Position numbers and translations under genes: made by a program. Shown here in pieces: positions 1,521 through 56,500 of a DNA stretch of 60,290 nucleotides (the stretch's first letter is position 1; each line of letters begins with the position of its first letter). The stretch comes from a virus. Taxonomy: Duplodnaviria; Caudoviricetes. The stretch spans positions 1-60,290 of IMG/VR virus record IMGVR_UViG_3300049141_000058; one strand, written 5' to 3'. The notes under the pieces were generated by a model that did no database searches, was not told the origin of the DNA, and saw only the letters and a list, made by a program, of their open reading frames with translations.

Positions 1521-2159
1521 GTGGAGATCGTAGAAACCTGGACCGGCCGCGCCGCCTGCTTACTGCAGCAGGCCATGCGACTGACGAACGAGGCGTTCGC
1601 GGAACACCTCGGCGTCAGCGAGCGGACGGTCAGCCGGTGGCACAGCGCTCCCGGCATGGTGCACCGAACCGAGGTGCAGCAGATCCTCGACACGGCATAC
1701 GAACAGGCGGGTGAGACGGTGCAGAGACGCTTCGCGCTCCTGCTGCGCCCGCCCGCGCCACGCGTGGAGGCCCAGGCCCTGCGGGTGGCAATAGCGGTCG
1801 TGCTGCGCGGGAACGACGTGCTGCTGGTGTGCCGGCGCGGCGACGGGGAGCTGCGCTGGCAGTTCCCCGCCGGCATGGTCAAGCCCGGCGCCGACCCGGC
1901 AACCGTCGCGGTGCAGGAGACGCACGGCGAGACGGGTGTGCACTGCACGGTCCGCGAGCAGCTGGGCGAGCGCGTCCACCCCGTGACGGGCGTGGTCGCC
2001 TCCTACTACCTGGCCGATCACCTGGCCGGGGATGCGACGAACCGTGACCCGCTCGAGAACGTCGACGTCACCTGGGTGCCGCGCACTGCCCTGACCCGGT
2101 TCATCCCCGCCGATCAGGTTTTCCCGCCGATTTTGTCCGCTTTGGAGGCGACTGTATGA
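1521..2159 (+). CDS. XRE-HTH / NUDIX hydrolase fusion
   Basis: N-terminal LTNEAFAEHLGVSERTVSRW HTH; C-terminal WQFPAGMVKPGADPATVAVQETHGETG degenerate Nudix box. Confidence 0.85.
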   Translation: MEIVETWTGRAACLLQQAMRLTNEAFAEHLGVSERTVSRWHSAPGMVHRTEVQQILDTAYEQAGETVQRRFALLLRPPAPRVEAQALRVAIAVVLRGNDVLLVCRRGDGELRWQFPAGMVKPGADPATVAVQETHGETGVHCTVREQLGERVHPVTGVVASYYLADHLAGDATNRDPLENVDVTWVPRTALTRFIPADQVFPPILSALEATV

Positions 2160-2569
2160 CGACCGAGACGACCACCGAGAAGCCCGGCATCTCCGCCGCC
2201 ATCATCGTGTCCGAGGGCAAGGTGCTCATGGTGCGGCGCCGGGTGTCGGAGGGTGAGCTGATGTGGCAGTTCCCGGCCGGGCAGATCGAGCCTGGGGAGG
2301 CCGCGGAGGATGCGGCGGTGCGGGAGACGGTCGAGGAGACCGGTCTGGTCGTCACCGCGACGAAGCTGCTCGGCGAGCGGGTGCACCCGAAGACGGGCCG
2401 GCTGATGTCGTACACGGCGTGCGAGCCGTTGCAGGGTGAAGCGCATGTCGCGGACGAGGACGAGCTGGACGCGGTCGCCTGGGTCGCCCACTCGGAGATC
2501 AAGGAGTACGTGCCCTACGGCTTGTACGAGCCGGTGCAAAAGTACCTCGACGACGTGCTGCCGCGCTGA
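2156..2569 (+). CDS. NUDIX hydrolase (MutT-like)
   Basis: Canonical Nudix box GQIEPGEAAEDAAVRETVEETGL. Confidence 0.9.
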   Translation: MTTETTTEKPGISAAIIVSEGKVLMVRRRVSEGELMWQFPAGQIEPGEAAEDAAVRETVEETGLVVTATKLLGERVHPKTGRLMSYTACEPLQGEAHVADEDELDAVAWVAHSEIKEYVPYGLYEPVQKYLDDVLPR

Positions 2570-3438
2570 GGAATGGTCTGGGCGGGCGCGGGTGCGGCGC
2601 ATGTCGGTCGTTCTGTCGTCCCGCCCCGCATCCGAGCGCTTTACTGCGAGGGGTAGCGCATCCTATCCCGGATTCCAAGTTGAGGTGTTGACGCAGCTCA
2701 GAGGCTTCGGGCGGGGAGTCTGATTTCGGTGCGCGGTGATTTGAGCTGATCACTGCGGCTGGCTACGGTCGCAGCACGTGGGGGCGGCGTGCGACTTGCA
2801 GCCCCCACCAACGAGGGTGGTTCAGTTTGGTCTACCGTCCACAGCATGGGCGAGTTCCGGCCGTCTCGTCAGACCATGCGCGGATCGGGACTATTGCGAC
2901 GGAAGGGATGTACGGGTGCCGTGCACAGTGATCGACCAGAGTGCACATCTTGCAAAATCGCAGGTCAGAGCCACCCTAACGCACCTCCAGATGCGTCCGG
3001 GATCCGCCCTACTACGCAAGCGGCTGCGGCAAGCTAGCACCGTCGGGGCAAGCTACCGACTGAGATCCTTTCGGCCAAAACATATGCCCCACTTGCCCGA
3101 CTCGGAAGGAGAGAGGCGTCGCCGAACAACACACCGCAGGCCAACGGGCACGCCGACACCCTCCCGTAATCACCCAGCTCAGGCATCCACGCAACCCCCA
3201 CTGCTCGACATTCATGCAGGTCAGGGGGCGTAGTAGACAACTATGTTGACAACTCGGAAGGAAACTCGCGGATGCTCCGAAACCGATCGCTAGCGTTGTG
3301 TCTCATTGCCGACCGCGGGCTACGGTCCGTGCAACGTCGAACGGCCGGGCGGTTCGCACCCGCCCGGCCGTAGCCCGACCAGCGAGTTCGCACCTCGCTG
3401 ATCAATCAACCATCACTCGCCAGAGAGAAGGTCTCGTC

Positions 3439-3747
3439 ATGAGCGTATCGCAGCGCTGTACTACACATCAGCGCAGCAATCTCACCGCCGACCGCTTGCT
3501 GGAAGATTCCCTCGCCGACTTGTTCACCCGGTTCGGGGTGGCCGTGTCCGTCATGGAGGCGGACGCCGGCTTCACCGGCGGCGCCTACGTCCACACTGAC
3601 GGCTCGCTGCTGTTCGTGCGGCCCGCGGGCAGGCCGGAGGCGGAGTGGGAGTTGACCGCGCGGGCGATGCTGGGCGCCGCGCTGCGGGTGCCGCTACCGC
3701 CGCTGCCGGAGCCGTACCGGCTGACGGAGATGGAGCCATCCGAGTGA
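3439..3747 (+). CDS. hypothetical protein immediately upstream of the CRISPR-like mini-array
   Basis: ATG 3439 after GAGAAGG; 102 aa with coding-like GC3 in the 3' two-thirds. Confidence 0.65.
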   Translation: MSVSQRCTTHQRSNLTADRLLEDSLADLFTRFGVAVSVMEADAGFTGGAYVHTDGSLLFVRPAGRPEAEWELTARAMLGAALRVPLPPLPEPYRLTEMEPSE

Positions 3748-3829
3748 CCGTCTAGGGCCGCGTTTCGCGTTCTCCCACGGACTGCCGACGGGTTGTGCCA
3801 TAGTGGTTGGGCCGCCGGGGAACCGACGG

Positions 3830-4059
3830 TTGCTCCCCGCCGATGCGGGGGTGTTCCGACTCTGAATCGCCCGGCTGTTGAGGGAGTTTCAGTTGTCCCC
3901 GCGGCAGCGGGGATGTGCCCGATGCGCATGACGACATCGCGGCTCCCCGCGCCAGCGGGGATGGCCCTGATTCCAGGGGCGTGCAGTACTGCTCCCCGCC
4001 GACGCGGGGGTAGACCGTGAACGCGGTCACTTGCTACCCGCGACAGCGGGAATGCGGAG
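3830..4059 (+). CRISPR. cas-less type I-E-like CRISPR mini-array (5 divergent 29-nt repeats; spacers 33/19/20/13 nt)
   Basis: R1 3830-3858 TTGCTCCCCGCCGATGCGGGGGTGTTCCG; R2 3892-3920 GTTGTCCCCGCGGCAGCGGGGATGTGCCC; R3 3940-3968 CGGCTCCCCGCGCCAGCGGGGATGGCCCT; R4 3989-4017 CTGCTCCCCGCCGACGCGGGGGTAGACCG; R5 4031-4059 TTGCTACCCGCGACAGCGGGAATGCGGAG. R1-R4 keep the CCCCGC-N4-GCGGGG stem of I-E repeats; R5 keeps CCCGC-N4-GCGGG. Confidence 0.85.
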
Positions 4060-4088
4060 CCCCACCCGATCACCGGGTGGGGCTCCGC
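4054..4088. terminator. bidirectional terminator hairpin
   Basis: Perfect 15-bp stem GCGGAGCCCCACCCG-ATCAC-CGGGTGGGGCTCCGC between the convergent array and 4112..5113. Confidence 0.8.
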
Positions 4089-4111
4089 CGTTTCATCCTG
4101 CAGCGCGGCGG

Positions 4112-5113
4112 TCAGCCGGCGGTCTCGTCGTCCTCGATGTCGGCGTAGTCGATGCGGGCACCGGTCGCCGCGGCGGCCCGGGCGGCCACCTGCCGGTGCC
4201 AGGACGCCGACCACCTCCCGCCCCGGTGCGCGGCGGCGTACTCCTCGTCACTGCGGTACGTGACGATCGTCGTGTCCTCGTCGTCCACGGACTCCACCAG
4301 CTTGGCGACTGCGGCGGCGGTCTCCTCCCGCAGTTCCGCGATCTCGGGCCGGATACGGCCGGGGATCGGGTCGCGGCCCTGCTCCCAGGAGCGCAGCGTG
4401 CGCGGGTTGACCCGCAGCAGCCTGGCCAGGTGGTCACCGGTCAGCCCCAGCTCCTCCCTGGCGATGCGCAGCTCGGCCGGCGTGATCGGGTCCTCGTCGG
4501 CGAGGCCGTCGCGCAGCTGCTTGAGGTAGCTGTCCAGGCCGTGGCAGACGACGACCGGGTGCTCACCGCACGCCTGCAGGTCGCCGAGGATCGCCTGCTC
4601 GATCTGTTCGAGGCGGGCGTCGGTGGTGTCGGCGGTGATGCCGTACTCGTCGGCCTCCTGGCCGTTGACGGCTGCGTCGATGTCCCACACGCCGACCAGG
4701 TCGCTGTCGGGGAACCCCTGCGTGTCCTCGTCGAAATGGCCTCCGTCGATCGTCGGCAAACCGAGGAACTTCTCGATCTCCTCCTCAGCGGCGATGGCGT
4801 CCTCGTTCATATCGGCGACGGTCGACTCTCCGTTCCAGACGGCTTCGGTACCGGCGATGATCCGGTCGGCGAGCGGGGCGATCTCTTCCATGACCCGGTT
4901 GGCGGCGTCCGCGGTCAGGACCGGGATCTCGTAGCGGCGGTCCAGGCCGTGGCGCACGGTCTCCGGGAGCGCGGTGCCGATCTCCGCGTTGTAACTGGCG
5001 TACAGGGTGCCGGCCTGGGTGTCGAGTTCGATGTAGGCGGGCTGCGGCTTGGTCTCGCCGTCGTAGTGACGGAACAGTTCGGTGGCGTTGGTGCACGGGA
5101 TGATGCGGACCAT
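4112..5113 (-). CDS. acidic N-terminal domain fused to a C-terminal Aca2/YdiL (DUF1870)-like HTH domain
   Basis: From residue ~210: ITPAELRIAREELGLTGDHLARLLRVNPRTLRSWEQGRDPIP...IVTYRSDEEY...SWHRQVAA follows the Aca2 pattern; the N-terminus is very Asp/Glu-rich. Confidence 0.75.
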   Translation of the reverse strand: MVRIIPCTNATELFRHYDGETKPQPAYIELDTQAGTLYASYNAEIGTALPETVRHGLDRRYEIPVLTADAANRVMEEIAPLADRIIAGTEAVWNGESTVADMNEDAIAAEEEIEKFLGLPTIDGGHFDEDTQGFPDSDLVGVWDIDAAVNGQEADEYGITADTTDARLEQIEQAILGDLQACGEHPVVVCHGLDSYLKQLRDGLADEDPITPAELRIAREELGLTGDHLARLLRVNPRTLRSWEQGRDPIPGRIRPEIAELREETAAAVAKLVESVDDEDTTIVTYRSDEEYAAAHRGGRWSASWHRQVAARAAAATGARIDYADIEDDETAG

Positions 5114-12458: not shown

Positions 12459-12652
12459 CAGAGGGACTCCAAAGTGGGCTGGAAGGGCTTGAGCGGGATC
12501 TCGGTCTGTCCGGGGATGGGTTGGGCTGGCGGGTCGGTGGCGCGGATGCTGGTCGGCCGGCGGCTGGGGGCGAGGCGGCGGGCGCAGACGGGGCCCAGGC
12601 CCGTGGGAGACGGGCGGACCAGACGCCGGCCACACGCCGCACAGCGGGCCAT
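12458..12652 (-). CDS. DUF6011-like Zn-finger protein
   Basis: RCAACGRRL...GLGPVCA motif. Confidence 0.7.
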   Translation of the reverse strand: MARCAACGRRLVRPSPTGLGPVCARRLAPSRRPTSIRATDPPAQPIPGQTEIPLKPFQPTLESL

Positions 12653-13827
12653 CACGCAGCCTCCGCGGCCGGCTGCGCGGCGGGCATCGGGATGCCGGTC
12701 GCCACGGACACGACGTGCGCGGCCAGCAGCGGCGGCACAGCGTTCCCCACCTGCTCGAACTGCTTCGTCTTGGTGCCCTGGAACGGGTAGTCGGGGTGGA
12801 ACGACTGGAGAACGGCGGCCTCCGCGACGGTGATGCGGACGGTGTCGGGGCTGGCGAACTGGGACTCGCCGCCTGCGTCTCGGTTGCGGTGTCCGGGCGG
12901 GGCGATCCGGTTGGTGGCGCACACCGTGGTGGCTGGCCTGTCGAGGGCCCAGCTCCAGCGGTGGGCCTCGCCGGTGAAGGTGGGGGCGGGCTGGTCGATG
13001 CTGCGGTTCTCGCGGGGGCCCTCCTTCGCGATCCAGGTGTCGGAGTCGCGGCGGGATCGCAGCATCCACGAACGGGTTTTCTCGGTAAGCGCCCAAGACG
13101 GCCCGTCGGCGGGGAACTCGTTGCCGCCCGGCGTCTTCCGCTCGCCGCGGGTGTTCACTGTGAGCCCCGACGTCCAGCCGAGCGCCTCCGCCATGGACAC
13201 CCACGACTCCAGGCGCGTCCCGAACAGGTCGTCCGCAGGGTCCTTGGCGTGTGTCGGATCCGGGGCGGTCACGCGGCGGACGCGGGAAGCGATCAGGATC
13301 GCCCGCTTCCGGGTCTGCGGGACCCCGTAGTCCGCGGCGTTGAGGATCCCCACCCAGGTGCTGTAGCCCCACTGCTGCAGGTACAGGGCGTACTGGCGCC
13401 ACAGCGGCAGGACGTCGGGGACTTCCTCCATGCACACCCACTCCGGGCGCAGGTCGTACAGCCACCGCATCGGCTCCGCAGCGAGCAGGCTGCGCTCGTC
13501 CTTGCACGCGGCCCGCACCGTGGCGCGGCTGTCCCGGCCGTGGGCGAGGTCGTGCACGGTCTGAGTGACCAGCGGCTGGTCCTCCAGGCCGCCGCGCTTC
13601 CCGGCCCGCGACCAGGCCTGGCACGGCGGGGACGCGATCAGCCCGGCGATCCGGCCGGCGAACGGCGCCGTCGGGTACTGGGCGACGTCGCACTGGATGA
13701 CCGGGTGCCCGGCGGCGTGCGCCGTTCTGCAGGCTGCGGTGTCCCACTCCAGGCCGACGTCGGTGAGGCCGAGGAGGCGCAGTCCCTCGGACCAGCCCCG
13801 CGGGCCGGCGAACAGGTCCACGATCAT
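12652..13827 (-). CDS. DNA (cytosine-5) methyltransferase
   Basis: VDLFAG (I), SPPCQ (IV), EEV (VI), QTRKR (VIII), VGNAVP (X). Confidence 0.92.
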   Translation of the reverse strand: MIVDLFAGPRGWSEGLRLLGLTDVGLEWDTAACRTAHAAGHPVIQCDVAQYPTAPFAGRIAGLIASPPCQAWSRAGKRGGLEDQPLVTQTVHDLAHGRDSRATVRAACKDERSLLAAEPMRWLYDLRPEWVCMEEVPDVLPLWRQYALYLQQWGYSTWVGILNAADYGVPQTRKRAILIASRVRRVTAPDPTHAKDPADDLFGTRLESWVSMAEALGWTSGLTVNTRGERKTPGGNEFPADGPSWALTEKTRSWMLRSRRDSDTWIAKEGPRENRSIDQPAPTFTGEAHRWSWALDRPATTVCATNRIAPPGHRNRDAGGESQFASPDTVRITVAEAAVLQSFHPDYPFQGTKTKQFEQVGNAVPPLLAAHVVSVATGIPMPAAQPAAEAA

Positions 13828-14057
13828 GCGGCGGCCCTCCGGTGTTCGGCGGGCAGGTCGGCGTCGCAGTAGAAGCCGATCGTCAGATGCAGGCCGTGGT
13901 CTTCGACGACCTTCCACACGGCGGTGTCGGCGCACGGGAGGCGGCCGTCCTGCTCGCGGTGGAAGTTGGTGGTGCAGTCCGCCAGGTCGGTGTAGTCGGG
14001 CAGCACCCAGCCGGTGGGCCGGTGGAAGACGCGGACGGTGGGCTTGCGACGGCTCAT
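13824..14057 (-). CDS. hypothetical protein
   Basis: MSRRKPTVRVF start, coupled to the methyltransferase. Confidence 0.6.
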   Translation of the reverse strand: MSRRKPTVRVFHRPTGWVLPDYTDLADCTTNFHREQDGRLPCADTAVWKVVEDHGLHLTIGFYCDADLPAEHRRAAA

Positions 14058-21147: not shown

Positions 21148-21975
21148 CTAGTCGACGAGTTCGCCCTCGATGGGGCTGTCGTCCTCGTCGGGGTGCGGGT
21201 TGGGGTGGGTCTGCGGGCCGGCGTTGATGACGGTGGGCCCGGCCTGTTCGGCGGCGACTTCCTGGGCGGCGCGGATCTGCTCCTTGCGCCACTCGGTGGA
21301 GGTGGGAACCCACGGCTCCAGGCGGTGGGCGACGGTCTTGAGGACCATCTGGTCGAACCACTTCACCCACGGCGAGCTGGCCCGGTCGCTGCCCTTGGAC
21401 TCCGCGCGGACCTTGTCGATGTAGTTGCGGTTGATGACGACGACACGGGAGGGGGTGCCGTCCTGGAAAATGCCGTAGGAGAAGGCGCCCTTGACTTCGC
21501 CGCGGTCGGAAAACCAGTCAGCGCGGTGGAACGGCACTCGCTGCGGGCCTTCCCATCGGGGACCGTCCGGGTGGCGGTCGATGCTGCCGGGCTCCCACAC
21601 GAACTCGTCGTTCTGGTACACGACTTCGGCGTGGACGACTTTGACGGCGCCAGACCGGTAGATGCGTTCGACGACTCCGCGGTAGCCCTCGATGCCCTGG
21701 ACCTCGTTGCCGAACGGGACGAGGTAGAAGGACTTGGAGGCGGGTTCGTGGCCGAGGCGGGCGCATTCCTGCAGGGCGGTCATGAGGCTGCCGGGGTTAC
21801 GGGTGGCGACCTGCAGGAGCTGGGCGTTGGAGCGGAGGGCGCCGTAGGCGAGGCGCATCCAGGTCTCGCCCTTGACGTGGGAGGGCAGGACGAGGGTGAG
21901 GTCTTCCTTGTGCTGCCGGACGATGGCCTCGGGGCCGTTGTCGCGGGTGGCGAGGGCGTTGCCGATCTGACTCAT
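21148..21975 (-). CDS. recT: RecT single-strand annealing recombinase
   Basis: YLVPFG..GYRG..VVYQNDEF..SPW...MVLKTV. Confidence 0.92.
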   Translation of the reverse strand: MSQIGNALATRDNGPEAIVRQHKEDLTLVLPSHVKGETWMRLAYGALRSNAQLLQVATRNPGSLMTALQECARLGHEPASKSFYLVPFGNEVQGIEGYRGVVERIYRSGAVKVVHAEVVYQNDEFVWEPGSIDRHPDGPRWEGPQRVPFHRADWFSDRGEVKGAFSYGIFQDGTPSRVVVINRNYIDKVRAESKGSDRASSPWVKWFDQMVLKTVAHRLEPWVPTSTEWRKEQIRAAQEVAAEQAGPTVINAGPQTHPNPHPDEDDSPIEGELVD

Positions 21976-22907
21976 GCTGCTTCCTTGCTGGTCTTGTAGG
22001 GGTTGAGTGACTTGGTGGTGCCGTCAGGCTTGGCGATGCGGTAGGCAATGCGGCGGCCGTCAACGACTGCGCGCCGGCCGGTGCCGATCAGGTCGAGGAC
22101 GACGCCCTTGGCGGCGGTGAGCTCGGCGGCGGCGGCCTTGGATGCGGCCTGCGCGTTCTCGTAGCGGGCGGCAGCCTCGGCGGCGATCTCGACGTCGACG
22201 TCTTCGAAGCTGTCGGGTTGGACGCGGATCGTCTTGTAGGTGTCGTCGGCGCCGTCGATCGGCGGACGCACGCCGTTGCGGACCTCGGTGAGGAACTGCT
22301 CTGCGGCGTCGCGGAGGATCTTCGCTTCGGTCTCGTCGTAGTCGACGGTGTATTCGCGGTAGTCGTGGCCGGAGATGAGGACGCCGAAGCGGGTGCGGCG
22401 CAGCCCGAGTGTGTCCATCTGCCAGATGACCTGGCAGCGGTACCAGATCGGCACCCCGTCCTCGGCGCCGGACGGGCCCCACTCGTCACCCATCGGGGAG
22501 GTTTTGACCTCCAGCAGTTCCTCGGCCTGCTCCGGCACGTCGAACGGGTCGGCAGGCCGTGCGTAGATGAGCCGGTCGGGGGTGGCGCGCTGCCACTCGC
22601 GTTCGCGGTGCTTCCATGTGCCGGCGGGGGCTGCGATGTAGCCGGGGTGCTCGTCCTGCCACTTCAGGGCGACGGCGTCCTCGAGCCGGTTTCCCCACTC
22701 GATGGCGGGGGTCATCTCGAAGGGGGCGGCGCGCAGTCCGGCCTTCTTGTGCCAGAGGGTGAAACGGCTCATCCACGGGGAGAGGCCGACGACTGCGGCG
22801 ATCTCGGTGGCGGTGATGCAGAGCCCGGCGCGGGCCTCCTCCCAGGCGTCGGTGCCGGGGGTGAGGTGCCCGATCAGAACCCCGTCGGGGACTGTTAGCG
22901 CGGTCAC
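21972..22907 (-). CDS. YqaJ-family (RecE/lambda Exo-like) exonuclease
   Basis: ITATEIAAVVGLSPW, WGNRLE, ATPD, LEVKT, YRCQVIWQM. Confidence 0.92.
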   Translation of the reverse strand: MTALTVPDGVLIGHLTPGTDAWEEARAGLCITATEIAAVVGLSPWMSRFTLWHKKAGLRAAPFEMTPAIEWGNRLEDAVALKWQDEHPGYIAAPAGTWKHREREWQRATPDRLIYARPADPFDVPEQAEELLEVKTSPMGDEWGPSGAEDGVPIWYRCQVIWQMDTLGLRRTRFGVLISGHDYREYTVDYDETEAKILRDAAEQFLTEVRNGVRPPIDGADDTYKTIRVQPDSFEDVDVEIAAEAAARYENAQAASKAAAAELTAAKGVVLDLIGTGRRAVVDGRRIAYRIAKPDGTTKSLNPYKTSKEAA

Positions 22908-23518
22908 TGCTGACCGCCCGTCACCGCGTCGTAGACGTCCCTAGCCCAGATCGCGTCGCCGAGGGCAGTGTGGGCCACGCCTTCTCCGGGCGGCTCGACA
23001 CCGACCGCGCGGGACAGGCCGCGGGAGGAGAACGGCAGGGAGGGCAGGTCGCCGGGGAAGGCGAAGTCTCCGCCGTAGGCGCCGCTGTCCCGCTGTCCGA
23101 ACCGGTAGCCGGCTGCGAGGGTGGCGATGTCGACGGTGCGGTAGTGCCAGGGCTTGGGGTGCCAGTAGTAGCGGGTGAAGATGTTGGAGATCATGTCGGC
23201 GTCGAAGGCCGGGTTCGACCCGACGAGGACCGCGCCGTCGAGGAGCCGGTACAGGTCACGGGCGACGTCCTGCGGCTTGCCCCAGCTCCAGTCCTCCATC
23301 TTGACGCGCTCGTGGTAGCGGTTGATCTCCAGCGCCTTCGGGTCAGCGTGGGTGAGGTCGGGCTCCAGGTAGAACACGGCCTCCTGGTCGGCCTCCCCCG
23401 GCTTGCGGAGGATGACGGCGATCTCCCACGCGTCGTGCTGGAACGGGTCCAGGCCGGTCGTCTCTGTGTCGACGAACGCCACTGGCGGCGGATGATTTGT
23501 GCTGGTTTCGGTGGTCAT
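22904..23518 (-). CDS. DnaQ-like DEDDh 3'-5' exonuclease
   Basis: FVDTETTGL, GSNPAFD, HTALGDA. Confidence 0.92.
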   Translation of the reverse strand: MTTETSTNHPPPVAFVDTETTGLDPFQHDAWEIAVILRKPGEADQEAVFYLEPDLTHADPKALEINRYHERVKMEDWSWGKPQDVARDLYRLLDGAVLVGSNPAFDADMISNIFTRYYWHPKPWHYRTVDIATLAAGYRFGQRDSGAYGGDFAFPGDLPSLPFSSRGLSRAVGVEPPGEGVAHTALGDAIWARDVYDAVTGGQQ

Positions 23519-23624
23519 GTGACTCCGTTCTGGGTGTGGCTGGTGGGGGCGGCCCGCACGACGGGTGAGGGCGGGCGGGCCGCCCTCGACTGCCGCGTCA
23601 GCCGCGGCTCGTGCGCGTTGGTCG

Positions 23625-24752
23625 CTACGTGAGCCGGACGGGCATGCACACGGCCTGGTAGGTGTCGGTAGCGGCCCCCGCGTCGTCAACGGGTCGGATC
23701 AACACCGGCTTGTTCGAGGTGGTGAACCAGACCTGCACCTGGCCGCTGATCGGGGCCAGCAGTGAGCCGAGGAAGCCGGGCCGGTAACCGGCCGTGAAAC
23801 CATCCAGGTCGGTGATCTCGGCGTCGACGCGGGAAGCCCCCTTGGATCCGTCCGCGCCGCCCGCCACAGTCACCTGGTCGTGGCCGAAGGTGAGGGTGAT
23901 GGCCTGCTCCTCCTTGTCGTTGACCAGCGCGGCCCGCTTCACCGCCTCCAAAAGCTCGCCCGCGCCGACCCGCATCCACCCCGAGGCAGCGGCGGGGTCG
24001 GGGAAGAACTGGCTGACGTCGGGGAACGGGGAGGCGATGGTGCGGCTGGTCACCGTCAGGGCGTCGTTGCTGAGGGCGGCGACAGTGAGGTCGCCGGTGA
24101 AGGAGATCCGCACCGGGCCGCCGGCCAGCTGCTTGGCGGTGGCCGCAAGGTTGGCTGCGGGGACCAGCAGGTCGCTGGAGGCGTCACCATCGGGGGTCCA
24201 CGGGATGCGGTGCCGAACGATCCGGTACCGGTCCGAGGCGGACACGGTCAGGTGGTCGCCGTCGGCTGCGACGTGGACGCCGCGGAATCCCTCCAGCTTG
24301 CCTGCGGCCTCCTTGTCGGGCATGGATGCCTGAGCGGCGTGCACCACGCTGGCGGCCAGCAGGTCGCCGTCCACTGTTCCCGCCGCGGCGGGCGGCTCCG
24401 GGAGGGCCGGGTAGTCGCGGCGGTCCATCGTGGGCAGCGTGAATGTGGTGCCCGGCGCGGACAGGGTGAGTTCTCGTTCGTCGGCGACGATGTCGATGGG
24501 GCCGGGGGGCATGGCGGCGGTCACGTCGGCGAGCAGCCGACCCGAGACGAGGACGTGCCCGGTCTCCAGTACGTCGGCGGTGAGGATGGCTCGGGTGCTC
24601 GTCTCGTAGTCGAAGCCGGACAGGGTGATCGCGTCGCCGCTGGTTTCGAGCAGGAGCCCGGCGAGTACGGGCTGCAGGGGATTGTTGGGCAGTCGGCGGT
24701 GGGCGCGCTTGGCGGCTTCCGCCAGCGTCTTCTGGTCGATGCGCAGCTTCAT
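23625..24752 (-). CDS. dnaN: DNA polymerase III beta sliding clamp
   Basis: PVLAGLLL, SGFDYE, LVSGRLLAD, ASDRYR, C-terminal CMPVR. Confidence 0.93.
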   Translation of the reverse strand: MKLRIDQKTLAEAAKRAHRRLPNNPLQPVLAGLLLETSGDAITLSGFDYETSTRAILTADVLETGHVLVSGRLLADVTAAMPPGPIDIVADERELTLSAPGTTFTLPTMDRRDYPALPEPPAAAGTVDGDLLAASVVHAAQASMPDKEAAGKLEGFRGVHVAADGDHLTVSASDRYRIVRHRIPWTPDGDASSDLLVPAANLAATAKQLAGGPVRISFTGDLTVAALSNDALTVTSRTIASPFPDVSQFFPDPAAASGWMRVGAGELLEAVKRAALVNDKEEQAITLTFGHDQVTVAGGADGSKGASRVDAEITDLDGFTAGYRPGFLGSLLAPISGQVQVWFTTSNKPVLIRPVDDAGAATDTYQAVCMPVRLT

Positions 24753-36704: not shown

Positions 36705-37040
36705 GTGACCGACCTGCCGCCTGACCTGCCGCGTCTCCGCACCCTGGAGCGGTGGCTCGCCCTCGCCCTGGCCGAGGTGCGGCAGGCCATCGCCGTCGCC
36801 GAGCAGCGGGAAGCCGAGCGCCAGCGCGGTATCGCCGCCCGTCCGCCGGCTCCGGACTGGCTCCTGGAGCAGGGCCTCACCGGACGGGTGCCGGTGTACG
36901 TCCATGCAGGCGGCTGCCACATGGCTGGCAAGCGGTCCCGGTCCGCCACCGCCGGCCAGGCGCGGCAGGCCCTCGCCGAAGGGGTGGACGCCTGCCCGCA
37001 CTGCCGGCCCGACACCGGCCTCGGCTATCTCGACGGCTAG
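36705..37040 (+). CDS. DUF6233-like protein
   Basis: DLPPDLPRLRTLE..VHAGGC..ACPHCRPDTGLG. Confidence 0.75.
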   Translation: MTDLPPDLPRLRTLERWLALALAEVRQAIAVAEQREAERQRGIAARPPAPDWLLEQGLTGRVPVYVHAGGCHMAGKRSRSATAGQARQALAEGVDACPHCRPDTGLGYLDG

Positions 37041-37942
37041 GCCGACCGGCGCGGCTTGCGCGGAGCCGCCTTCTTGGCCGCGGTCTTCTTGGCGGGCTGC
37101 TTCTTCGCGGTCTTCTTCGGCGGCGGCATCTCGTGGACGTCGGCGTCTCCGCCCTCGCCCCGTGACGCCTTCGCCTTGGCCACGGACGCGTTCAGTGCGG
37201 CCATGAGGTCGACGAGCTGCCCCGGCTCCTCCGCCGGCTCCGGCATTGGCGGTGGTGCGATGTGCTGCCGCTTGGCTTCGATGATCTGGGCGACGGCTTC
37301 CGTGTACCGGTCCTGGAACTCTTCGCCGACCAGTTCGTCGACGGTCATGGTGTCCATCAGGGCGAGCGCGCCCGCGATCTCCTCGTTGGTCACGTCGACG
37401 GGAGGGGGCAGCAGTTCGGTGGGGTCGCGGATTTCATCCGGCCAGCGCATGGCGTGGAGGACGATGACGTCGCCGCGGACGCGGAGCAGGCCGAGACGCT
37501 CGCGTCCTGACCAGGCGTACTTCGCCACCGCCACCTTCGAGGAGCGGCCGAGAGCCTGGACGAGCAGCTTGTACGGCTTCGCGGCGACCTGCCCGTCGGG
37601 CTGGAGGTAGTAGCCCTCACCGATACGGATCGGGTCGACGGAGTCGAGGGGCACGAAGGCTTCGATCTCGATCGCCTTCGCGGTCGGCAGGGGTAGGTTC
37701 CGCAGGTCGTCGTCGCTGATGGGGATGACCTGCGTTTTGCTCAGCTCATACCCTTTGCCGATCTCCGACTGGGCGACCTCGCGGTCCTCGAGTTCGCACA
37801 CCTTGCGGTAGCGGACCCGGCCCATGTCCTCCAGGTGGTACTGGTGGAACTGGATGCTGTGGTTCTCGGTGGCCGACTGCACGTTGATCGGCACGGTGAC
37901 CAGGCCAAACGAGATGGCGCCGGACCAGATGGTTCGGGGCAT
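37037..37942 (-). CDS. ku: NHEJ DNA end-binding protein Ku
   Basis: RTIWSGAISFGLVTVPI, IGKGYE, YYLQP, VDLMAALNASV, Lys-rich tail. Confidence 0.96.
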   Translation of the reverse strand: MPRTIWSGAISFGLVTVPINVQSATENHSIQFHQYHLEDMGRVRYRKVCELEDREVAQSEIGKGYELSKTQVIPISDDDLRNLPLPTAKAIEIEAFVPLDSVDPIRIGEGYYLQPDGQVAAKPYKLLVQALGRSSKVAVAKYAWSGRERLGLLRVRGDVIVLHAMRWPDEIRDPTELLPPPVDVTNEEIAGALALMDTMTVDELVGEEFQDRYTEAVAQIIEAKRQHIAPPPMPEPAEEPGQLVDLMAALNASVAKAKASRGEGGDADVHEMPPPKKTAKKQPAKKTAAKKAAPRKPRRSA

Positions 37943-38088
37943 GGCGGACCTCCCAGACGGCCCCGAGCAAGGTCCAGCCTACGGTCGCCGCCCGGATGTC
38001 GCAGCAAGCGAAACGCCCCATATGGGATGAATGGTCGGATTGGGTGAGGGGCACTCCGTCTCGTGAACCCCCACAGGACGGAGCTGCA

Positions 38089-38364
38089 ATGATCATCCAG
38101 AAGATGCACGAAATAGGCGTCAGGAGCGAGCACGCCTACATGGCCGCCTTCGCCTCCATCGGCCTCACCGTCGTCGCCTGGGCCACCAGCCTCAACGCCG
38201 AACCCGGCGCCGGTATCGCCCGCGCCGACCGATGGGGCCTCTTCGTCGGCGAATGGGCGCCCACGTTCTTCGGCCTCGGCCTCGCGCTCTCCCATTACGA
38301 GCAGCAGGACGGCACCCTGACGGCCAGCGTCCACGACTTCCGGGACGCCGCGAAAGCGGGCTGA
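38089..38364 (+). CDS. conserved actinobacterial membrane protein
   Basis: ADRWGLFVGEWAPTFFGLGLAL. Confidence 0.8.
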   Translation: MIIQKMHEIGVRSEHAYMAAFASIGLTVVAWATSLNAEPGAGIARADRWGLFVGEWAPTFFGLGLALSHYEQQDGTLTASVHDFRDAAKAG

Positions 38365-38571
38365 GCGAGGCAGCCGCGTGGCCTCCCGTGGGGAGCCGGG
38401 AGGTGCGGCGGGCCCTGCCGGCCGGTCACGCACGGCAGGGCCCAAGAGGGGGTCCGTCACCTGGCGGTGGTGGGGAGGATCCCGCCCTCACACCATGCAT
38501 CACGATCCAGCCATGCGGTAGATCCGCGGCTGAAATTCGCCGCTGTCAGTGGTGGCAGGCATCATGCCCGC

Positions 38572-38745
38572 ATGCAGAACTACAGCCTCACCTGGACCGA
38601 CCCTGACGGCCGCCCGCGCGCCTCCGCCGTCGCCTACGACCAACCCAGCGCCGCCGAACGCAAAACCGAGCTCCAAAAGGCCGGCTGCACCAACGTGGAG
38701 ATCGTTCCCGTCAAGCCCGGCCAGCTGCCCGAACCGCGGGCGTGA
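38572..38745 (+). CDS. small hypothetical protein
   Basis: MQNYSLTWTDPDGRPRASAVAYD. Confidence 0.65.
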   Translation: MQNYSLTWTDPDGRPRASAVAYDQPSAAERKTELQKAGCTNVEIVPVKPGQLPEPRA

Positions 38746-38837
38746 CGCACGCGAGCGCCCGACCTTCTGGCCGGGCGCTCGGGGTTCGGCGATCGCGTCC
38801 GCAGACCATCGCCACTGGGCACCCAGAAGGCGCGTCA

Positions 38838-38914
38838 GGTGCGGGGCCGGAGTCGAACCGACGTCCATGCCGGGCATGACCCCGGCCGCTCTATACCCAG
38901 TGAGCTACCCGCAC
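38838..38914 (-). tRNA. tRNA-like element with an aberrant 8-nt anticodon loop (GGUCAUGC), no encoded CCA
   Basis: Acceptor GTGCGGG/CCCGCAC; D arm GCTC-ACTGGGTATA-GAGC; anticodon stem GCCGG/CCGGC; T arm GTCGG-TTCGACT-CCGGC. Confidence 0.75.
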
Positions 38915-38986
38915 CCCCAGGATGCCAGAAGCCCCGCCGAGACGGGGGAGCCCGGCAGGGCCTGACAGCAGTGTGGCACGGGGCGG

Positions 38987-39160
38987 TCAGTCTTCGCGGT
39001 GAAGCGGGGACTCTCGGCAGCGCGGATTCGTGCAGATGACCTTCTCTTCCTCGCTGGCCGGCTCCATGTAGGTGCGAAGGCTGAAGGTGTTACAGCCGGT
39101 GCACCGGCGTTGGGGGCCGGGCTTGGTGCTGTTGAGGAACTCACTGAACGGCGTCGTCAT
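38987..39160 (-). CDS. small Zn-ribbon protein
   Basis: CTGC...CTNPRC, ATGA-coupled to the recombinase gene. Confidence 0.55.
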   Translation of the reverse strand: MTTPFSEFLNSTKPGPQRRCTGCNTFSLRTYMEPASEEEKVICTNPRCRESPLHRED

Positions 39161-40176
39161 AGTCCGATGTCCTCCGATGCGGCGTCGGTCCACTTGTCGG
39201 CTTCGCGGATGTAGCCCCAGAAGGCGGGGCTGTTCTCGGCGTGGCCGGACTGTTCGCGGATCTTCTCCTCTCGCTTGCCTGCGCGTCGAGAGGTGGTGAT
39301 GAATCCGGCCCGCATGCTGTGTCCGGTCAGCCGCACCGACAGGCCGGCGCGTTCGGCGTTGCGAGCGATGATCTCGCGGACGGCTTCCGGGGAGAGGGCG
39401 CGGTTGCCGAGGCGGCCGTGGACGGTGATGGGCAGGAAGGAGGGGCCCGAGGTGATGCCTGCGGCGGCGCGCCAGGTGAGCCATGCGCGGACGGGGCAGG
39501 TGTCGGGGTTCTTGCCGTAGTGGACGACGACGTCGCGGGGTGGGCGGCCTTTGACCGCGGGGACGTGGACTTCGAGTCCTTGGCTGACGTGGACGATCGA
39601 CTCGGCGCGGAGGGCGGCGACTTCGGCGGAGCGTCCGGCGATGGCGAAGGCAAGGAGCCAGAGGGCGCGGTCGCGGAGTCCGGTGAGTCCGTCGGCGACG
39701 GCGGCGTTCATCTGCCGGAGCTGTTCGGGTGTGGCTGCGGCGGCCTTCCCTCGGCCGCGCGCCATGCGTTCGGGGTCGTGCTTGAGCGGCTTGAGGGCTT
39801 GCCGGGCGGCGACGGTGGCGGCCTTGGGTACCTCGACGCCGTGTTCGTTCCGGGCGGTGACGGTGACGCCGGTGATCCTGCGGTCGATGCTGTTGGGTGC
39901 GGCGAGTTTGATGGTGTCGAGCCAGACGACGAATCCGACGAGCGTGCCCTTGGTGACGTTGGTGGAGGCGATCCGGTGCCCGGTGCGCTCCCCCAGCCAG
40001 TCGTGGAACTCCTCCCACAGCGCCCAGTCGTTGGCGTAGCCGCGCTTCGTGTTGTGGGGGCGGATGGCGTCGAGGTGCTTCTCGGCTGCCTTTTCCATGG
40101 CGTGCAGGACGGCGAGCGTCGCAGCGTCGTAGATGGCGGGGGCGGTGTCGGACTGGTGGGGGACGACCGCGGTCAC
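39157..40176 (-). CDS. Cre-like tyrosine recombinase/resolvase
   Basis: NTKRGYANDW SAM-like N-terminus; LRDRAL, GRSAEV, GHSMRAG, SGH, GYIR. Confidence 0.92.
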   Translation of the reverse strand: MTAVVPHQSDTAPAIYDAATLAVLHAMEKAAEKHLDAIRPHNTKRGYANDWALWEEFHDWLGERTGHRIASTNVTKGTLVGFVVWLDTIKLAAPNSIDRRITGVTVTARNEHGVEVPKAATVAARQALKPLKHDPERMARGRGKAAAATPEQLRQMNAAVADGLTGLRDRALWLLAFAIAGRSAEVAALRAESIVHVSQGLEVHVPAVKGRPPRDVVVHYGKNPDTCPVRAWLTWRAAAGITSGPSFLPITVHGRLGNRALSPEAVREIIARNAERAGLSVRLTGHSMRAGFITTSRRAGKREEKIREQSGHAENSPAFWGYIREADKWTDAASEDIGL

Positions 40177-52653: not shown

Positions 52654-53595
52654 CTAGGACGCCAGGTAGCGGGGCTGGTAGGTGAGGTTGACGCTGGTCG
52701 CCGACGTCGAGCCGTCGATGACGAGGTTGAGGGCGTTGACGCCTTCCTCGAGCGGCCACAGCTCGGAGCTGTCGGACAGGTCCGGCCACAGGTTCGTTAC
52801 GTCGTTCAGGAGGGCGGTCTGCTGGCGCTCACGAGTGTCGATGACGACGGTGTCCGTGCCGGTGATCGAGCGGGTCAGCACCAGTTCCTTGCCGGTCGTC
52901 TCGTTGACGAGCGTGATGCTGGTCGCGGGGCCCTGAATGGTCCATAGGGGAAAGGCGGCGGCGTCGCCGTCGTTGTCGATGGTGACCTCGCCGAGCACCT
53001 GCGAATCGCCGACACGGAGCGGCAGGATGGGGAAGAACGTGCCTCCGGTGGCGTTCTTGAAATCGCGGCTGACGACGTCGCCGACCCAGTAGGGCGAGGG
53101 CGTGGCAAAGGTGATCACGTTGATGCACCAGCGCTCCCCCGCCGCATCCAGGGACTCGTCGCCCTCCAGGCCGCCCGTGTAGTAGGCGCCGATCTGGCGG
53201 GTCGCACCGTTCGGCTCGGTCAGGGTCAGGGTGCCGACTCCCCGCTTCGGGTTGAGGCTCTTGATGAAGGCGCGGCGGCGCGCCTTGTAGGCGTCGCGGG
53301 AGTCGTGAGCCCAGAACGCCAGCGGCAGGATGATGTCCTTGCCCTGGGCGCGGACGTCTCGGAGCTCGTAGCCGTCGATGCCGGGGCTCTCGTCGGTGTT
53401 GAAGGTGAAGCCGGGCATGTCCAAGCCCTTGGCGCCGGGCTGGAGGAGCCACCCGTTCTCCCAGTCCGACAGGTGCGTTGTCACCCCGCGCGGGTCCGTG
53501 AAGGACACGGCGGGCATCTGGTTGATCAGGGTGGGCCACGGGACGCCGGCCTGTACCTCTTGGGGGACGTAGGTTGCGGGGACGAGGATCGGCAT
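52654..53595 (-). CDS. distal tail protein (Dit)
   Basis: Directly after the tape measure gene; PSPYW, NDGD..P.W.IQGP. Confidence 0.85.
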   Translation of the reverse strand: MPILVPATYVPQEVQAGVPWPTLINQMPAVSFTDPRGVTTHLSDWENGWLLQPGAKGLDMPGFTFNTDESPGIDGYELRDVRAQGKDIILPLAFWAHDSRDAYKARRRAFIKSLNPKRGVGTLTLTEPNGATRQIGAYYTGGLEGDESLDAAGERWCINVITFATPSPYWVGDVVSRDFKNATGGTFFPILPLRVGDSQVLGEVTIDNDGDAAAFPLWTIQGPATSITLVNETTGKELVLTRSITGTDTVVIDTRERQQTALLNDVTNLWPDLSDSSELWPLEEGVNALNLVIDGSTSATSVNLTYQPRYLAS

Positions 53596-56500
53596 CAGCC
53601 CACCACCACCGTTCGGTTGAGCATGTCGTCCATGGCGAGGGCGTCCTGAACGCTCTTACGGGAAGCGACTTCTTTCACGAGCGCGCTGTAGTGCAGGTGG
53701 CGGTCGCCGCCGTTCCTGATGGTCTGGCTGGTCTGCACGCGGGAGGCGGACGCCGCGGCCGTGGCCCGCACGGCGCCGGCCATGCGCAGCGCAGCCGCGC
53801 GGGCCTGCGGCACTGTCTCCTCGACGCCCTGCGAGTAGCCCAGGCCCGTGAAGCGGCCGAGCCGTCGCAGGATCCGCGAGGGCGACTTGATGTCCAGCTC
53901 TACCTTGATGGTTTTCTGGATGCTCTTGGCCAGCTTCACCATCTGCTGCTCGATGAGCTTTTGCGTGGACTGCAGACCGGTCAGGTAGCCCTTGCCGCTG
54001 TTGGTGCCGGCGTCGAACATGGCGTCGGCGGCGTTCTTGCCGAATGCCGTGGTCGTCTTGTCGATCGCCGACTGTGCCGTGTTGATCTGCCGGAATTCCT
54101 TGGGGGTGGCGTCGACGAGGGCCTGGGCGTAGGCGGCTCCCTGTTCGGGTCCGGCGGTGATGATCTGCTGGAGCAGGTTCTTCGACAGGCCCCGCTCGGA
54201 CAGGATCTTGATGTTGGCGCCGAACTTCTTCAGCTGGGTCAGGCGTGTGGTGAGCCCGGACAGGATCCCGGAGGCGTTGAAGGTGTTCCCGCCGCTGGGC
54301 AGGCCGGTGAGGGAGGTGAACTGGCGTGCCTGGCCTGTGGTGTCGGCGGCGAACTGGTTCGCTTCGGCGATCTTCGCGGCGATGGCGTCGCGTTGCTTCG
54401 CCAGGGCCTGCAGTTGCCGGTTCGCGCCGCTGATCTGGGCGAGCAGCTTGTTGTCGAGGGTGGTCTTCACTCCCTTGAAGGCGTTCTTCACCGCGTTGGC
54501 GACCTTCGTCATCGCCGAGTCGATCGCCGCGGCGGTGCCGGTGAGCTGCTTGAGGAAGTCGCCGCCGACGGCCGCGGCGAGCGGCCCGGTGTCGACGCGT
54601 TTCCCGGCGACGGTGATGACGCCGCCCGAGGCGTAGCCGGTGCGCAGCCCGCGGTGGATGCGGGTGCCGACGATGCCGCCGCCCGCGTAGCCGCCGGGCC
54701 GGTTGTACGCCTTCGACAGGGAGCCGTAGCGGGCCAGCGCGTACCGCATGCTGGCGTAGATGTTGGCCATCGGGTCGACGCTGACGCCGTACATGAACGG
54801 GCCGGTCTTGCGGTACTTCCCGGCATACGCCTCGAAGGTGCCGCGGATGACCTGCATCAGCCCCACACTGGGGTGGCCTGCCTGCCAGTTGGAGTCCCAG
54901 CGGTTGACCGCGCGCGGGTTGCCGCCGGATTCCTGGTTCATGCGGCGCAACGTCGTGGACACGAGGCTCATGGACTGGTTGAGCTGGCCGAGGGCCTGCT
55001 GCACGACGCCGGTCCACCGCTGCACCCCGGGGCCGCCCTCTCCCCCGCCGGCGAGGTAGCGCATGGGGTCGACTGTCTTGCCGTTGACGCGGGCCTCGAG
55101 GTGGAGGTGGGGGCCGGTGACGTTGCCGGTCGCGCCCACGCTGCCGATCTTCGCGCCCTGTTTGATGCCGTCACCGGCGCGGGCGACCATCGCCGACATG
55201 TGCGCGTACAGCGACGCCAGCCCGCCGCCGTGGGAGACGGTGACGTGCTTGCCGTAGGGGCCGCCGGACTGCACGGACTGGACGGTGCCGCTGTCGACGG
55301 CCACGACCTTGGTTCCCGTGGCGGCGGGGAAGTCCAGGCCGGTGTGCCGGCCGCTCGCCCACATCAGGCCCCGCTTGCCGAACGGGGTGCCGTAGGGGGC
55401 GTTGACCGGCTTGACCCACGATCCGGTGGCCGGCGGGATGTCCTTGCCGCGGATGTAGTCAATGGCCTTGTCGATGAGGCCGATCGGCGCGGCGGCGATC
55501 ATGCCGGGGAAGGTGTTCCTGTTGCTGCCGAGGGCTTTGGTGAGGCCGTTCTTGACCGGCTTGAACGCTTTCTCGGCGAGGTCGGCGAGTCCGCCGCGGA
55601 CGGCGTCGGCGCCCTTGCCGAGGGCTTTACCGACTCCCGAGGCGATGCCGGAGCCGATGTCGCCGATGGCGCCGAGGATGCCTCCTTCGGCGAAGCCATA
55701 CTGCATGCGGGCCACTGCCGGGTGCTGGCCGCGCATCGCGGCCTGGTTCATCGCGTACAGGCGCTGCCGCTCATACGGGTCGCGCATGACCTCGGAGACG
55801 TACACGCCCTCGCCGCGCCGCATAGGGACGAGCTGGTCGTCACCCTGCCGCCAAGTGGACCAGCCGGGGAGGATGCCGCCGCGGGCGAAGCCCTTGGGCA
55901 GGTTCATCGTCTTCAGGTCGGGAACGCCGGGGATTTTCGCGGCCGTCCGATTCCAGACTGAGACAATTCCGCGGTTATAGGCCGTTTCTATCCAGAATCG
56001 GATGGGGGCTTTGACGAGGTTTTGGATGCGCTGCCAGATGGTGCCGATGCCGTCTCGGATGCCGCGGAACGCGTCCTTGAGCTTGTCTCCGAAGCTGTCC
56101 ACGCCGTCCCGGACGGCCTTCCACGCGTCGGCCGCGATCGACAGGACCTGGGTCCAGAAGCGGCGCCAGATCTCGGCTGCGCCGTCCTTCAGCGACCGGA
56201 ACAGGGCGACGACGCCGTCCTTGAGGGCGGTGACGATCTCTTTGAGCCGCTTCCACATGCGGCCGAACCAGTCGATCGCCCCTCGCACGATGTCGGGGAT
56301 GATCGAGTGGCCCAGCAGGACGTCGAAGAGCCATTCGAACTTGTCGACGACCCACTCGACAGCGTCTGTGACCGCCTCGACGAACCTCGTCAGCCAGCCG
56401 ATGACGGTGTTCACGATGGGCACCAACTGGCCCAGCGCGACCGTGAGCAGCCCTGTCAACAGCCCGGCCAGCTGCACGATCAGCGGCATCAGCGGGGTGA

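Follow-up and report, generated by a model that had tools for sequence, protein, structure and literature searches.

The DNA analyzed here, referred to below as the window, is the whole 60,290-base stretch of the IMG/VR virus record IMGVR_UViG_3300049141_000058, a linear viral record with about 69% G+C, and the element under study is an array of five type I-E CRISPR repeat units located on its plus strand at positions 3830–4059. We conclude that this region is probably a viral anti-CRISPR array of CRISPR RNA (crRNA) mimics, of the kind described as viral crRNA-like regulatory anti-CRISPR RNAs (Cracrs) and solitary phage repeat RNA anti-CRISPRs (Racrs), in which the third unit is a viral relative of a CreA-like guide of the host. 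Phage RNAs that jam or redirect the type I-E defence of the host are the most likely way in which it works, and soil Streptomyces is both the setting and the host genus of the phage. The conclusion draws on the anatomy of the array, its homology to repeats and mini-arrays of the host, its conservation, the stem-preserving manner of its evolution and its sporadic presence in related elements; from these observations we infer its transcription, its processing by Cas6e, the loading of the products into Cascade, every one of the targets, and the toxicity of the product of a host open reading frame (ORF) described below.

Anatomy of the array

Sequence reading, together with a register-optimised hairpin scan, resolved five units of 29 nucleotides (nts) each, R1 to R5, whose start-to-start distances of 62, 48, 49 and 42 leave spacers of 33, 19, 20 and 13 nts. 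The original prediction of five differing I-E repeats with these spacer lengths, with full stems in R1–R4 and 5 base pairs (bp) in R5, was thereby confirmed for both coordinates and pairs. The units have the layout of a type I-E repeat, in which a 6-bp G+C stem closes a 4-nt loop and an 8-nt handle comes next, and by their letters only they qualify as Cas6e substrates. All six stem pairs are present in R1 (3830–3858), R2 (3892–3920), R3 (3940–3968) and R4 (3989–4017), and five of the six in the degenerate terminal repeat R5 (4031–4059), the handle of which overlaps a terminator-like hairpin. No two of the five loops are alike, and the same holds for the five handles. Between the repeats, and on the same strand, lie pseudo-spacers 1 (3859–3891), 2 (3921–3939), 3 (3969–3988) and 4 (4018–4030). 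R3, the 20-nt pseudo-spacer 3 and R4 together are called unit 3, with R3 as the source of its 5′ handle. The orientation of the array is that of genuine host arrays relative to their cas operon.

A relaxed stem pattern (5-nt arms, 4-nt loop) occurred eight times in the window against 0.93 expected by chance, and none of 100 dinucleotide-preserving shuffles reached this number. Five of the eight matches fall at 3836–4050, and the remaining three (24379, 43163 and 45637) have no repeat flanks and are not repeat-like; thus, according to the pattern scan and the inspection of the three outside matches, there is no solitary repeat unit elsewhere in the window. These results confirm that the array is real and non-random. 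The minimum-free-energy fold of the whole unit, where R2 pairs with R3 because the stems are palindromic, was uninformative.

Relation of the repeats to genuine Streptomyces arrays

When the array was compared by BLAST with 401 Streptomyces genomes (host genomes were sampled one per species, about 800 in all), 229 of them were matched, mainly at long regular CRISPR arrays. R1 showed 96–100% identity over 26–28 nts to the repeats of long arrays in four genomes (G250, G237, G045 and G226), R4 showed 96% identity to array repeats in G317, and R3 showed 93% identity to those in G161 and G301. Loop and handle divide the consensus repeats of the hosts into two subtypes. R1 and R4 correspond to subtype A, and R3 and, less closely, R2 correspond to subtype B, the subtype-B-like handle of R2 being similar to that of the first repeat in L002, the closest relative of the array. 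Judged by these identities, the phage array consists of copies of host repeats of two I-E subtypes. The earlier idea of a panel directed at different host variants fits this result, since R1 and R4 match one genuine subtype and R3 matches the second.

The spacers of genuine Streptomyces arrays were 32 nts long in 563 of 592 cases and 33 nts in 19. Relative to the native 32 nts, the three short spacers of the window fall short by 13, 12 and 19 nts, so that shortening as such agrees with the original prediction, but the proposed steps of 6 nts are followed only loosely. The array does not have the features of an adaptive I-E array, as all five repeats differ, one of the four spacers is of native length, and pseudo-spacers 2 and 3 are common to L002.

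Two soil metagenome runs (X1 and X3) contain many contigs in which an R1-like repeat end is linked to an R4-like start (window 3858 / 3992) via unique inserts of 33–35 nts. These contigs are genuine subtype-A arrays of other organisms that share the samples with the phage or its relatives.

Conservation of the array in homologous elements

Five homologous arrays were identified, one on a 63-kb viral contig (L002/L005), one on another viral contig (L006), and three in Streptomyces genomes at positions away from the cas loci (L058, L059 and L064). At least five of the six arrays end with a terminal hairpin. All six stem pairs are kept in 24 of the 25 repeat units of the six arrays, and the mean column entropy of the 25 units was 0.17 bits for the stem, compared with 1.69 for the loop, 1.24 for the handle and 1.14 for the 5′ flank. 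Among the six units with variant stems, two were changed on both sides yet remain paired, three are paired via G-U, and one (R5) is broken. Stem-breaking changes as frequent as loop changes, which had been named as the mark of a neutral relic, were therefore not seen, there being one broken stem in 25 units.

The window array and the L002 array are identical at 189 of 220 positions (86%), compared with 60 of 96 (62%) for four-fold degenerate positions in the gene next to the array. Whole units have been inserted or deleted between the two arrays, and the unit of pseudo-spacer 4 is absent from L002. The commonest start-to-start spacing in the arrays was 49 nts, which corresponds to a 20-nt spacer and accounts for 8 of 19 intervals. 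Otherwise, the six arrays lie among unrelated genes, indicating either retention or repeated transfer, and beside homologous genes the array is absent from L001 and from all six further related viral loci, among which L149 belongs to the L001 contig. Because the stems are kept across the homologues, the array exceeds silent-site conservation, and its presence is sporadic in unrelated contexts, these comparisons indicate that it is a selected accessory element moving between genomes and not a relic. Selection rather than decay had been predicted from the window, and the near-invariant stem columns of the six arrays, with variable loops and handles, bear this out.

The similarity extends to part of the pseudo-spacers. 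Pseudo-spacer 2 is conserved in L002, where it resembles spacer a (z 9.1, a score reached by none of 500 shuffles), and pseudo-spacer 3 resembles spacers in L002, L058, L059 and L064, with z of 11.3, 6.6, 4.6 and 2.8, respectively, the last being weak. Because they are conserved between elements, pseudo-spacers 2 and 3 are judged to be inherited, unlike acquired spacers. A similarity between pseudo-spacer 1 and the first spacer of L006 was not significant and was withdrawn.

A PHROG match was obtained for one of the nine ORFs neighbouring the L058 and L059 arrays, which does not show prophage status. Searches of genome and metagenome collections with the leader pattern returned 13 and 18 stretches, of which only L028 contained an array, and a 15-nt piece of pseudo-spacer 3 was found in 16 stretches of IMG/VR, where the L002/L005 contig alone carried an array and the others were chance matches. 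At L146 (G679:C133), spacers of 21, 39 and 32 nts and subtype-B handles form a further degenerate array.

A mini-array and a small membrane ORF in host type I-E loci

Cas8e was found in 111 of the 401 genomes, and 30 cas8e loci were fetched. Repeat-like elements were present between cas3 and cas8e in four of the 30 (L097, L099, L111 and L117), and a fifth locus, L148, was obtained from a pattern search that matched in 3 of 391 genomes. Each of the five loci has a small hydrophobic ORF that runs antisense to the cas genes. Translated in four of the loci, it encodes a two-helix membrane protein of 69–91 amino acids (aa), and the proteins of the other three are 59–71% identical to that of L117, where the ORF and the two-repeat mini-array lie at 3412–3804 of the reverse-complement view, opposite cas3/cas8e. 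Strong matches to the small ORF were limited to 4 of the 401 genomes, with six weak ones in addition (E 3.8e-6 to 9.4e-4).

The mini-array follows the ORF and is composed of a degenerate repeat ending in a subtype-B handle, a pseudo-spacer, and a second repeat. The pseudo-spacers are 20, 21, 33, 20 and 21 nts long (20–21 nts in four of the five), and in each locus the pseudo-spacer pairs with a site 335–357 nts upstream, which either coincides with the beginning of the small ORF or precedes it by as many as about 40 nts, and which follows a −10-like hexamer at a distance of about 20–25 nts. The protospacer-adjacent motif (PAM) at the target is AAC in all five loci. Type I-E guides have every sixth base flipped out, and partial pairing that starts from the seed permits binding without Cas3 cleavage. 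Among the first 14 PAM-proximal positions, 11–12 of the 12 effective ones match the host targets; the mismatches within the 14 are found at positions 6 and 12, with one exception (position 8 in L148), and pairing ends after position 13 or 14. Moreover, guide and target co-vary between the loci.

By analogy with CreTA and CreR, the published examples of regulatory mini-arrays (PMC8501985; 10.1101/2023.03.03.530964), the host mini-array is read as regulatory and, because its target precedes the small membrane ORF, as CreA/CreT-like. By the same analogy the module looks like a CRISPR-repressed toxin of the CreTA type, with the ORF product as the presumed toxin. A module of this kind in Streptomyces, with the small membrane ORF and the mini-array antisense to cas3/cas8e, was not found in print, the search covering texts outside supplementary tables.

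In G001, one of the genomes with a related array, a full I-E operon flanked by two arrays occupies one contig, the phage-type mimic array is on a different contig, and no mini-array is present within the cas locus. Mini-arrays of prophages and hosts have been reported to be anti-correlated, and this single case, plus G271, agrees with that.

Relation of unit 3 to the host guides

The handle of unit 3 agrees at seven of eight bases with the handle of all five host mini-arrays, and its geometry is also like theirs, with a 20-nt guide and the same beginning of the next repeat. Positions 7–17 of pseudo-spacer 3 are identical to the host guide of L111, giving a same-register run of 11 nts; the longest such run among the 592 genuine spacers was 8. 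The 20-nt length is common to the host mini-arrays, which suggests that it came from them. With respect to handle, length and positions 7–17, unit 3 thus fits the earlier idea of short promoter-repressing guides, but for the rest of that idea no cas-promoter target was found for any spacer of the window in 46 host cas or array loci. Over the 12 effective positions, pseudo-spacer 3 matches the five host modules at 6–8.

Pairing in type I-E depends above all on the first five guide positions, the seed. That of pseudo-spacer 3 is found again in L002, L059 and L058, either identical or with at most one of five positions different, and because of this recurrence it suggests an unsampled host variant rather than decay. 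In the related array L064, one unit matches host targets at 11 of 12 positions, so that it reaches the threshold of at least nine PAM-proximal matches used for Cracrs, and L058 contains both seed types as neighbouring units. Two isolated matches did not exceed chance and were discarded: pseudo-spacer 3 agreed over 12 nts with part of a coding sequence in L137 that is distant from cas genes, and pseudo-spacer 2 agreed at 8 positions, with an AAC PAM, with the end of the small ORF in L117.

Proposed mechanism

The region is probably a single small non-coding transcription unit, in which a leader with a promoter block would be followed by five mimics with four pseudo-spacers and then by a terminator hairpin. 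In an infected or lysogenic cell with a I-E system, Cas6e of the host would cut the transcript at every stem-loop, and four crRNA-like RNAs would result, with guides of 33, 19, 20 and 13 nts behind 5′ handles of 8 nts that represent two host subtypes. Neither a Cas6e family match nor a Cas7e homologue was found in the record, the completeness of which is estimated at 76%, and therefore the phage must rely on Cas proteins of the host. The RNAs would load these into non-immune, mostly shortened Cascade complexes and would compete with the host crRNAs that target phages. In the host, the mini-array would guide Cascade to the gene of the small membrane protein in the cas3–cas8e interval, where it would bind at the gene start via about 12 PAM-proximal bp next to the AAC PAM. 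Viral unit 3 would then keep the presumed toxin, or another promoter with a matching seed, silent while CRISPR is disabled.

A more far-reaching version, which we offer tentatively as it is possible but rather doubtful, is that the array acts as a four-guide, two-subtype 'master key' against Streptomyces I-E systems, and that unit 3 silences an undescribed CreT-like membrane toxin guarding I-E loci. If this is true, type I-E would gain its first toxin-silencing Cracr and Actinomycetota their first CreTA-type safeguard, and the alternative seed, being conserved, would be a sign of a second family of guarded loci that has yet to be sampled.

Several results weigh against the crRNA-mimic array with a host-related unit 3. 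The first five positions of pseudo-spacer 3 match at none or one of five in the five host targets, and with all five host modules unit 3 stays below the at least nine PAM-proximal matches of the Cracr criterion. Pseudo-spacers 1 and 4 show no significant similarity to any spacer of the five related arrays. The four pseudo-spacers gave no excess over shuffled spacers in the 30 cas8e loci or in 16 other cas or array loci, and no meaningful site was found in the phage itself. Pseudo-spacer 1 gave only chance-level matches in 50,697 phage records; a competing element or a host cas promoter had been proposed as the target of this 33-nt spacer, and the proposal found no support in these records, in the 46 host loci or in the phage. 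The target predicted for pseudo-spacer 3 (AAC, seed and a ribosome-site-like motif) occurs in none of the 401 genomes of the family. The small host ORF belongs to no known family and bears the toxin label by analogy only, and three genomes that carry related arrays (G001, G021 and G271) have no match to it, G021 having no Cas8e match either. A generic scan of 3200–4300 returned no sigma-70 promoter and no T-run terminator (the hairpin at the end of the array has no T run and was for this reason not called), and no Rfam family was matched in the whole window at gathering thresholds. The protein of the convergent gene next to the array matches Aca2_YdiL only weakly (E 6.6e-4, 20.3 bits, below the 23.8-bit cut-off). 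In addition, the conservation of stems and diversity of loops could stem partly from repeated copying of different host repeats and not from selection in the phage.

Alternative explanations

The absence of a target for any pseudo-spacer, and a seed of pseudo-spacer 3 that is unlike all five host targets, would also be explained if the array were a pure sponge of the Racr type, that is, if RNAs without a DNA target trapped Cas6e, Cas5e and Cas7e of two subtypes in aberrant or shortened complexes and the pseudo-spacers were linkers whose lengths are tolerated. The repeats are close copies of host repeats, and Racrs against I-E are known to work in Pseudomonas (PMC10651486). Linkers, however, should drift, yet pseudo-spacer 3 is conserved in four further arrays whose contexts are unrelated, agrees in register over 11 nts with a host regulatory guide, and has a seed type that recurs in the window, L002, L059 and L058 with at most one of five positions different. 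The Racrs described are also solitary repeats, with no five-repeat array among them, and we consider the sponge unlikely. A neutral relic, a piece of host CRISPR taken up by an ancestor of the phage and now decaying without function, would account for heterogeneous repeats, odd spacer lengths and a degenerate terminal repeat, as well as for the absence of the array from most relatives and of the region from the RNA runs listed. It is nevertheless very unlikely, because full stems persist in 24 of 25 units with changes compensated, the identity to L002 is 86% in the array against 62% at neighbouring silent sites, a common leader block and a terminator hairpin frame the arrays, and their gene contexts are unrelated.

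We regard as similarly improbable, if not slightly more so, that the array is a working mini-CRISPR that uses host Cas proteins against competing phages or plasmids, or against the host. Pseudo-spacer 1 is of native length and could be a normal 33-nt guide, as 33 nts are found in 19 of 592 genuine spacers, but no protospacer for it was present in the 50,697 phage records or the loci examined (IMG/VR was not searched with pseudo-spacer 1). Moreover, three of the four guides are 13–20 nts long, which is too short for Cas3-dependent I-E interference, pseudo-spacers 2 and 3 are inherited and not acquired, and all five repeats differ. The phage might, finally, employ host Cascade in its own life cycle as a repressor that can be programmed against a host or phage gene unrelated to CRISPR defence, for example in the control of lysogeny, with no anti-defence role; the array lies among regulatory helix-turn-helix (HTH) genes of a temperate phage, and short I-E guides bind without cleavage. 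We give this explanation the least credence, since the phage has no matching site and the sole identified relatives of the pseudo-spacers are regulatory guides inside host cas loci. The crRNA-mimic array of the Cracr/Racr kind thus remains the reading that we prefer.

Comparison with known systems

Cracrs, in the part of the preprint available to us, comprise viral I-E arrays with shortened spacers, 16 with two spacers and 4 with three, and their hosts include Actinomycetota; the tested I-E Cracr represses the casA promoter as a mimic of CreR (Liu et al., 10.1101/2024.10.29.618823). The window array resembles those described there in that it is (pro)phage-borne and outside a cas locus, has several repeat-like units in what would be one transcription unit, has spacers shorter than native ones, appears aimed at variants of one CRISPR type, and contains at least one unit akin to a host regulatory mini-array. 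Within the same part of the preprint, the differences are that the window array has four pseudo-spacers and mixes two repeat subtypes, that the host counterpart here precedes a membrane-protein gene (CreA/CreT-like), a mode shown in the preprint for type I-F, and that unit 3 is below the at least nine PAM-proximal matches for the five host modules. Because of this last difference we describe the window array as one that would work like a Cracr array and do not file it as a proven Cracr.

The I-E examples of Racrs, solitary phage repeat RNAs, are functional in Pseudomonas (Camara-Wilpert et al., Nature 2023, PMC10651486). In common with them, as far as that paper is available, the window array consists of phage mimics of host repeats with what appear to be their own promoter and terminator, which would bind Cas6 and Cas7 away from immune crRNAs. 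Racrs are described there as single repeats without guides, whereas the window has five repeats and conserved pseudo-spacers, one of which is akin to a host guide; strictly defined, Racrs are solitary, and the window array is therefore not one of them.

The CreTA/CreR systems (Cheng et al., NAR 2021, PMC8501985; Shmakov et al., 10.1101/2023.03.03.530964) share with the present case two degenerate repeats around a guide that pairs, partially and from the seed onwards, with a PAM-flanked site in a promoter within the cas locus. According to the parts available, regulatory mini-arrays near cas3 and cas8 are typical of type I-E (PMC8501985; 10.1101/2023.03.03.530964), and phages carry copies of mini-arrays with slightly shortened spacers (Shmakov et al., 10.1101/2023.03.03.530964). 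The systems described there are single units in host cas loci, in contrast to the multi-unit phage array found here. The virus-borne mini-CRISPR arrays of Medvedeva et al. (Nat Commun 2019, PMC6858448) are likewise short viral arrays that use Cas proteins of the host. In the portion of that paper available, their repeats are identical to those of the host and their full-length spacers match related viruses, whereas the window has five repeats that are all unlike and three short guides, and the search for viral protospacers was negative.

RNAs of viral origin that mimic CRISPR repeats are therefore a known class, although described only recently, and the decoy and guide ideas of the original prediction are already in print as Racr and Cracr, respectively. 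What may be new is the Streptomyces setting, the combination of four guides and two repeat subtypes in one unit, and the I-E host module with a membrane ORF. Streptomyces is not mentioned in the three key papers and the review consulted, among them the main text of 10.1101/2024.10.29.618823, the supplementary tables of which might list such arrays. A full-text search found no publication that joins Cracrs, Racrs or mini-arrays with Streptomyces, though here too supplementary tables might list cases.

Streptomyces phages and their CRISPR counter-defences have been little studied, and antibiotic production as well as phage-based genetic tools make the genus important. If the proposed reading is true, RNA-based anti-CRISPR arrays extend to actinophages, and a single array addresses two I-E repeat subtypes together. 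The phage element also led to a host module in which a membrane ORF is apparently guarded by a mini-array and looks like a CRISPR-repressed toxin. The natural guides of 13–20 nts provide test cases for how far a I-E Cascade can shrink and still bind DNA or tie up Cas proteins. According to the part of the preprint available (10.1101/2024.10.29.618823), multi-unit architectures of this natural kind have already served as compact cassettes for multiplexed guides.

Sequences flanking the array

A 12-nt leader block on the plus strand (3795–3806) is identical in five of the six homologous arrays and lies about 24–28 nts before the first repeat; its conservation points to a putative promoter element of the extended −10-like type. 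It is followed by a short leader hairpin recognized by sequence reading (3811–3829, plus strand), which abuts R1, and a hairpin-forming stretch is found at the same place of the leader in L002 (perfect) and L006 (bulged). On the other side of the array, an inverted-repeat search detected a perfect, 100% complementary 15-bp hairpin with a 5-nt loop at 4054–4088, overlapping the end of R5. This hairpin has no T run, and its counterpart is kept in L002. It is likely a two-way terminator between the array and the convergent gene at 4112–5113. The leader block and both hairpins were absent from the original prediction.

The small ORF upstream of the array (3439–3747, plus strand, 102 aa) has no Pfam or PHROG match. 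A contig of soil run X2 spans 3531–3737 with 36 differences and then diverges. The convergent gene (4112–5113, minus strand) encodes a protein of 333 aa with a C-terminal HTH domain (Pfam HTH_31, E 1.8e-5; phrog_955, HTH DNA-binding protein), and its first 200 residues are of no known family. The protein shares 74% aa identity with that encoded next to the L002 array. The array region or parts of it are contained in three soil metagenome DNA runs, and no RNA run is listed with the region. No variants were seen inside the array when the soil metagenome runs were compared with the window.

Other genes of the phage

From the gene content, which includes a tape-measure protein, an endolysin, a DnaB helicase and a tyrosine integrase, the record is assigned to a temperate tailed phage. 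The tape-measure protein (53595–59426, minus strand, 1,943 aa) has embedded M23 peptidase and lytic transglycosylase domains, and the endolysin and the helicase were recognized by Pfam or PHROG matches. No close DNA relative of the record was found among the 50,697 deposited phage records, and its DnaB has less than 50% identity to those of deposited phages.

Genes for Ku and for the integrase (37037–40176, minus strand) lie on either side of a tRNA-like fragment with an odd anticodon call (38837–38915), which may be the attachment site. The C5 cytosine DNA methylase gene (12652–13935, minus strand) likely has an anti-restriction function. A recombination pair of RecT and a YqaJ-like protein is encoded at 21148–24752 (minus strand) together with a phage-encoded sliding clamp of the DNA polymerase III beta type. 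Phage NUDIX enzymes can degrade signalling nucleotides or decap RNA, and two adjoining NUDIX hydrolase genes are present at 1521–2569 (plus strand), the first with an N-terminal HTH-like segment.

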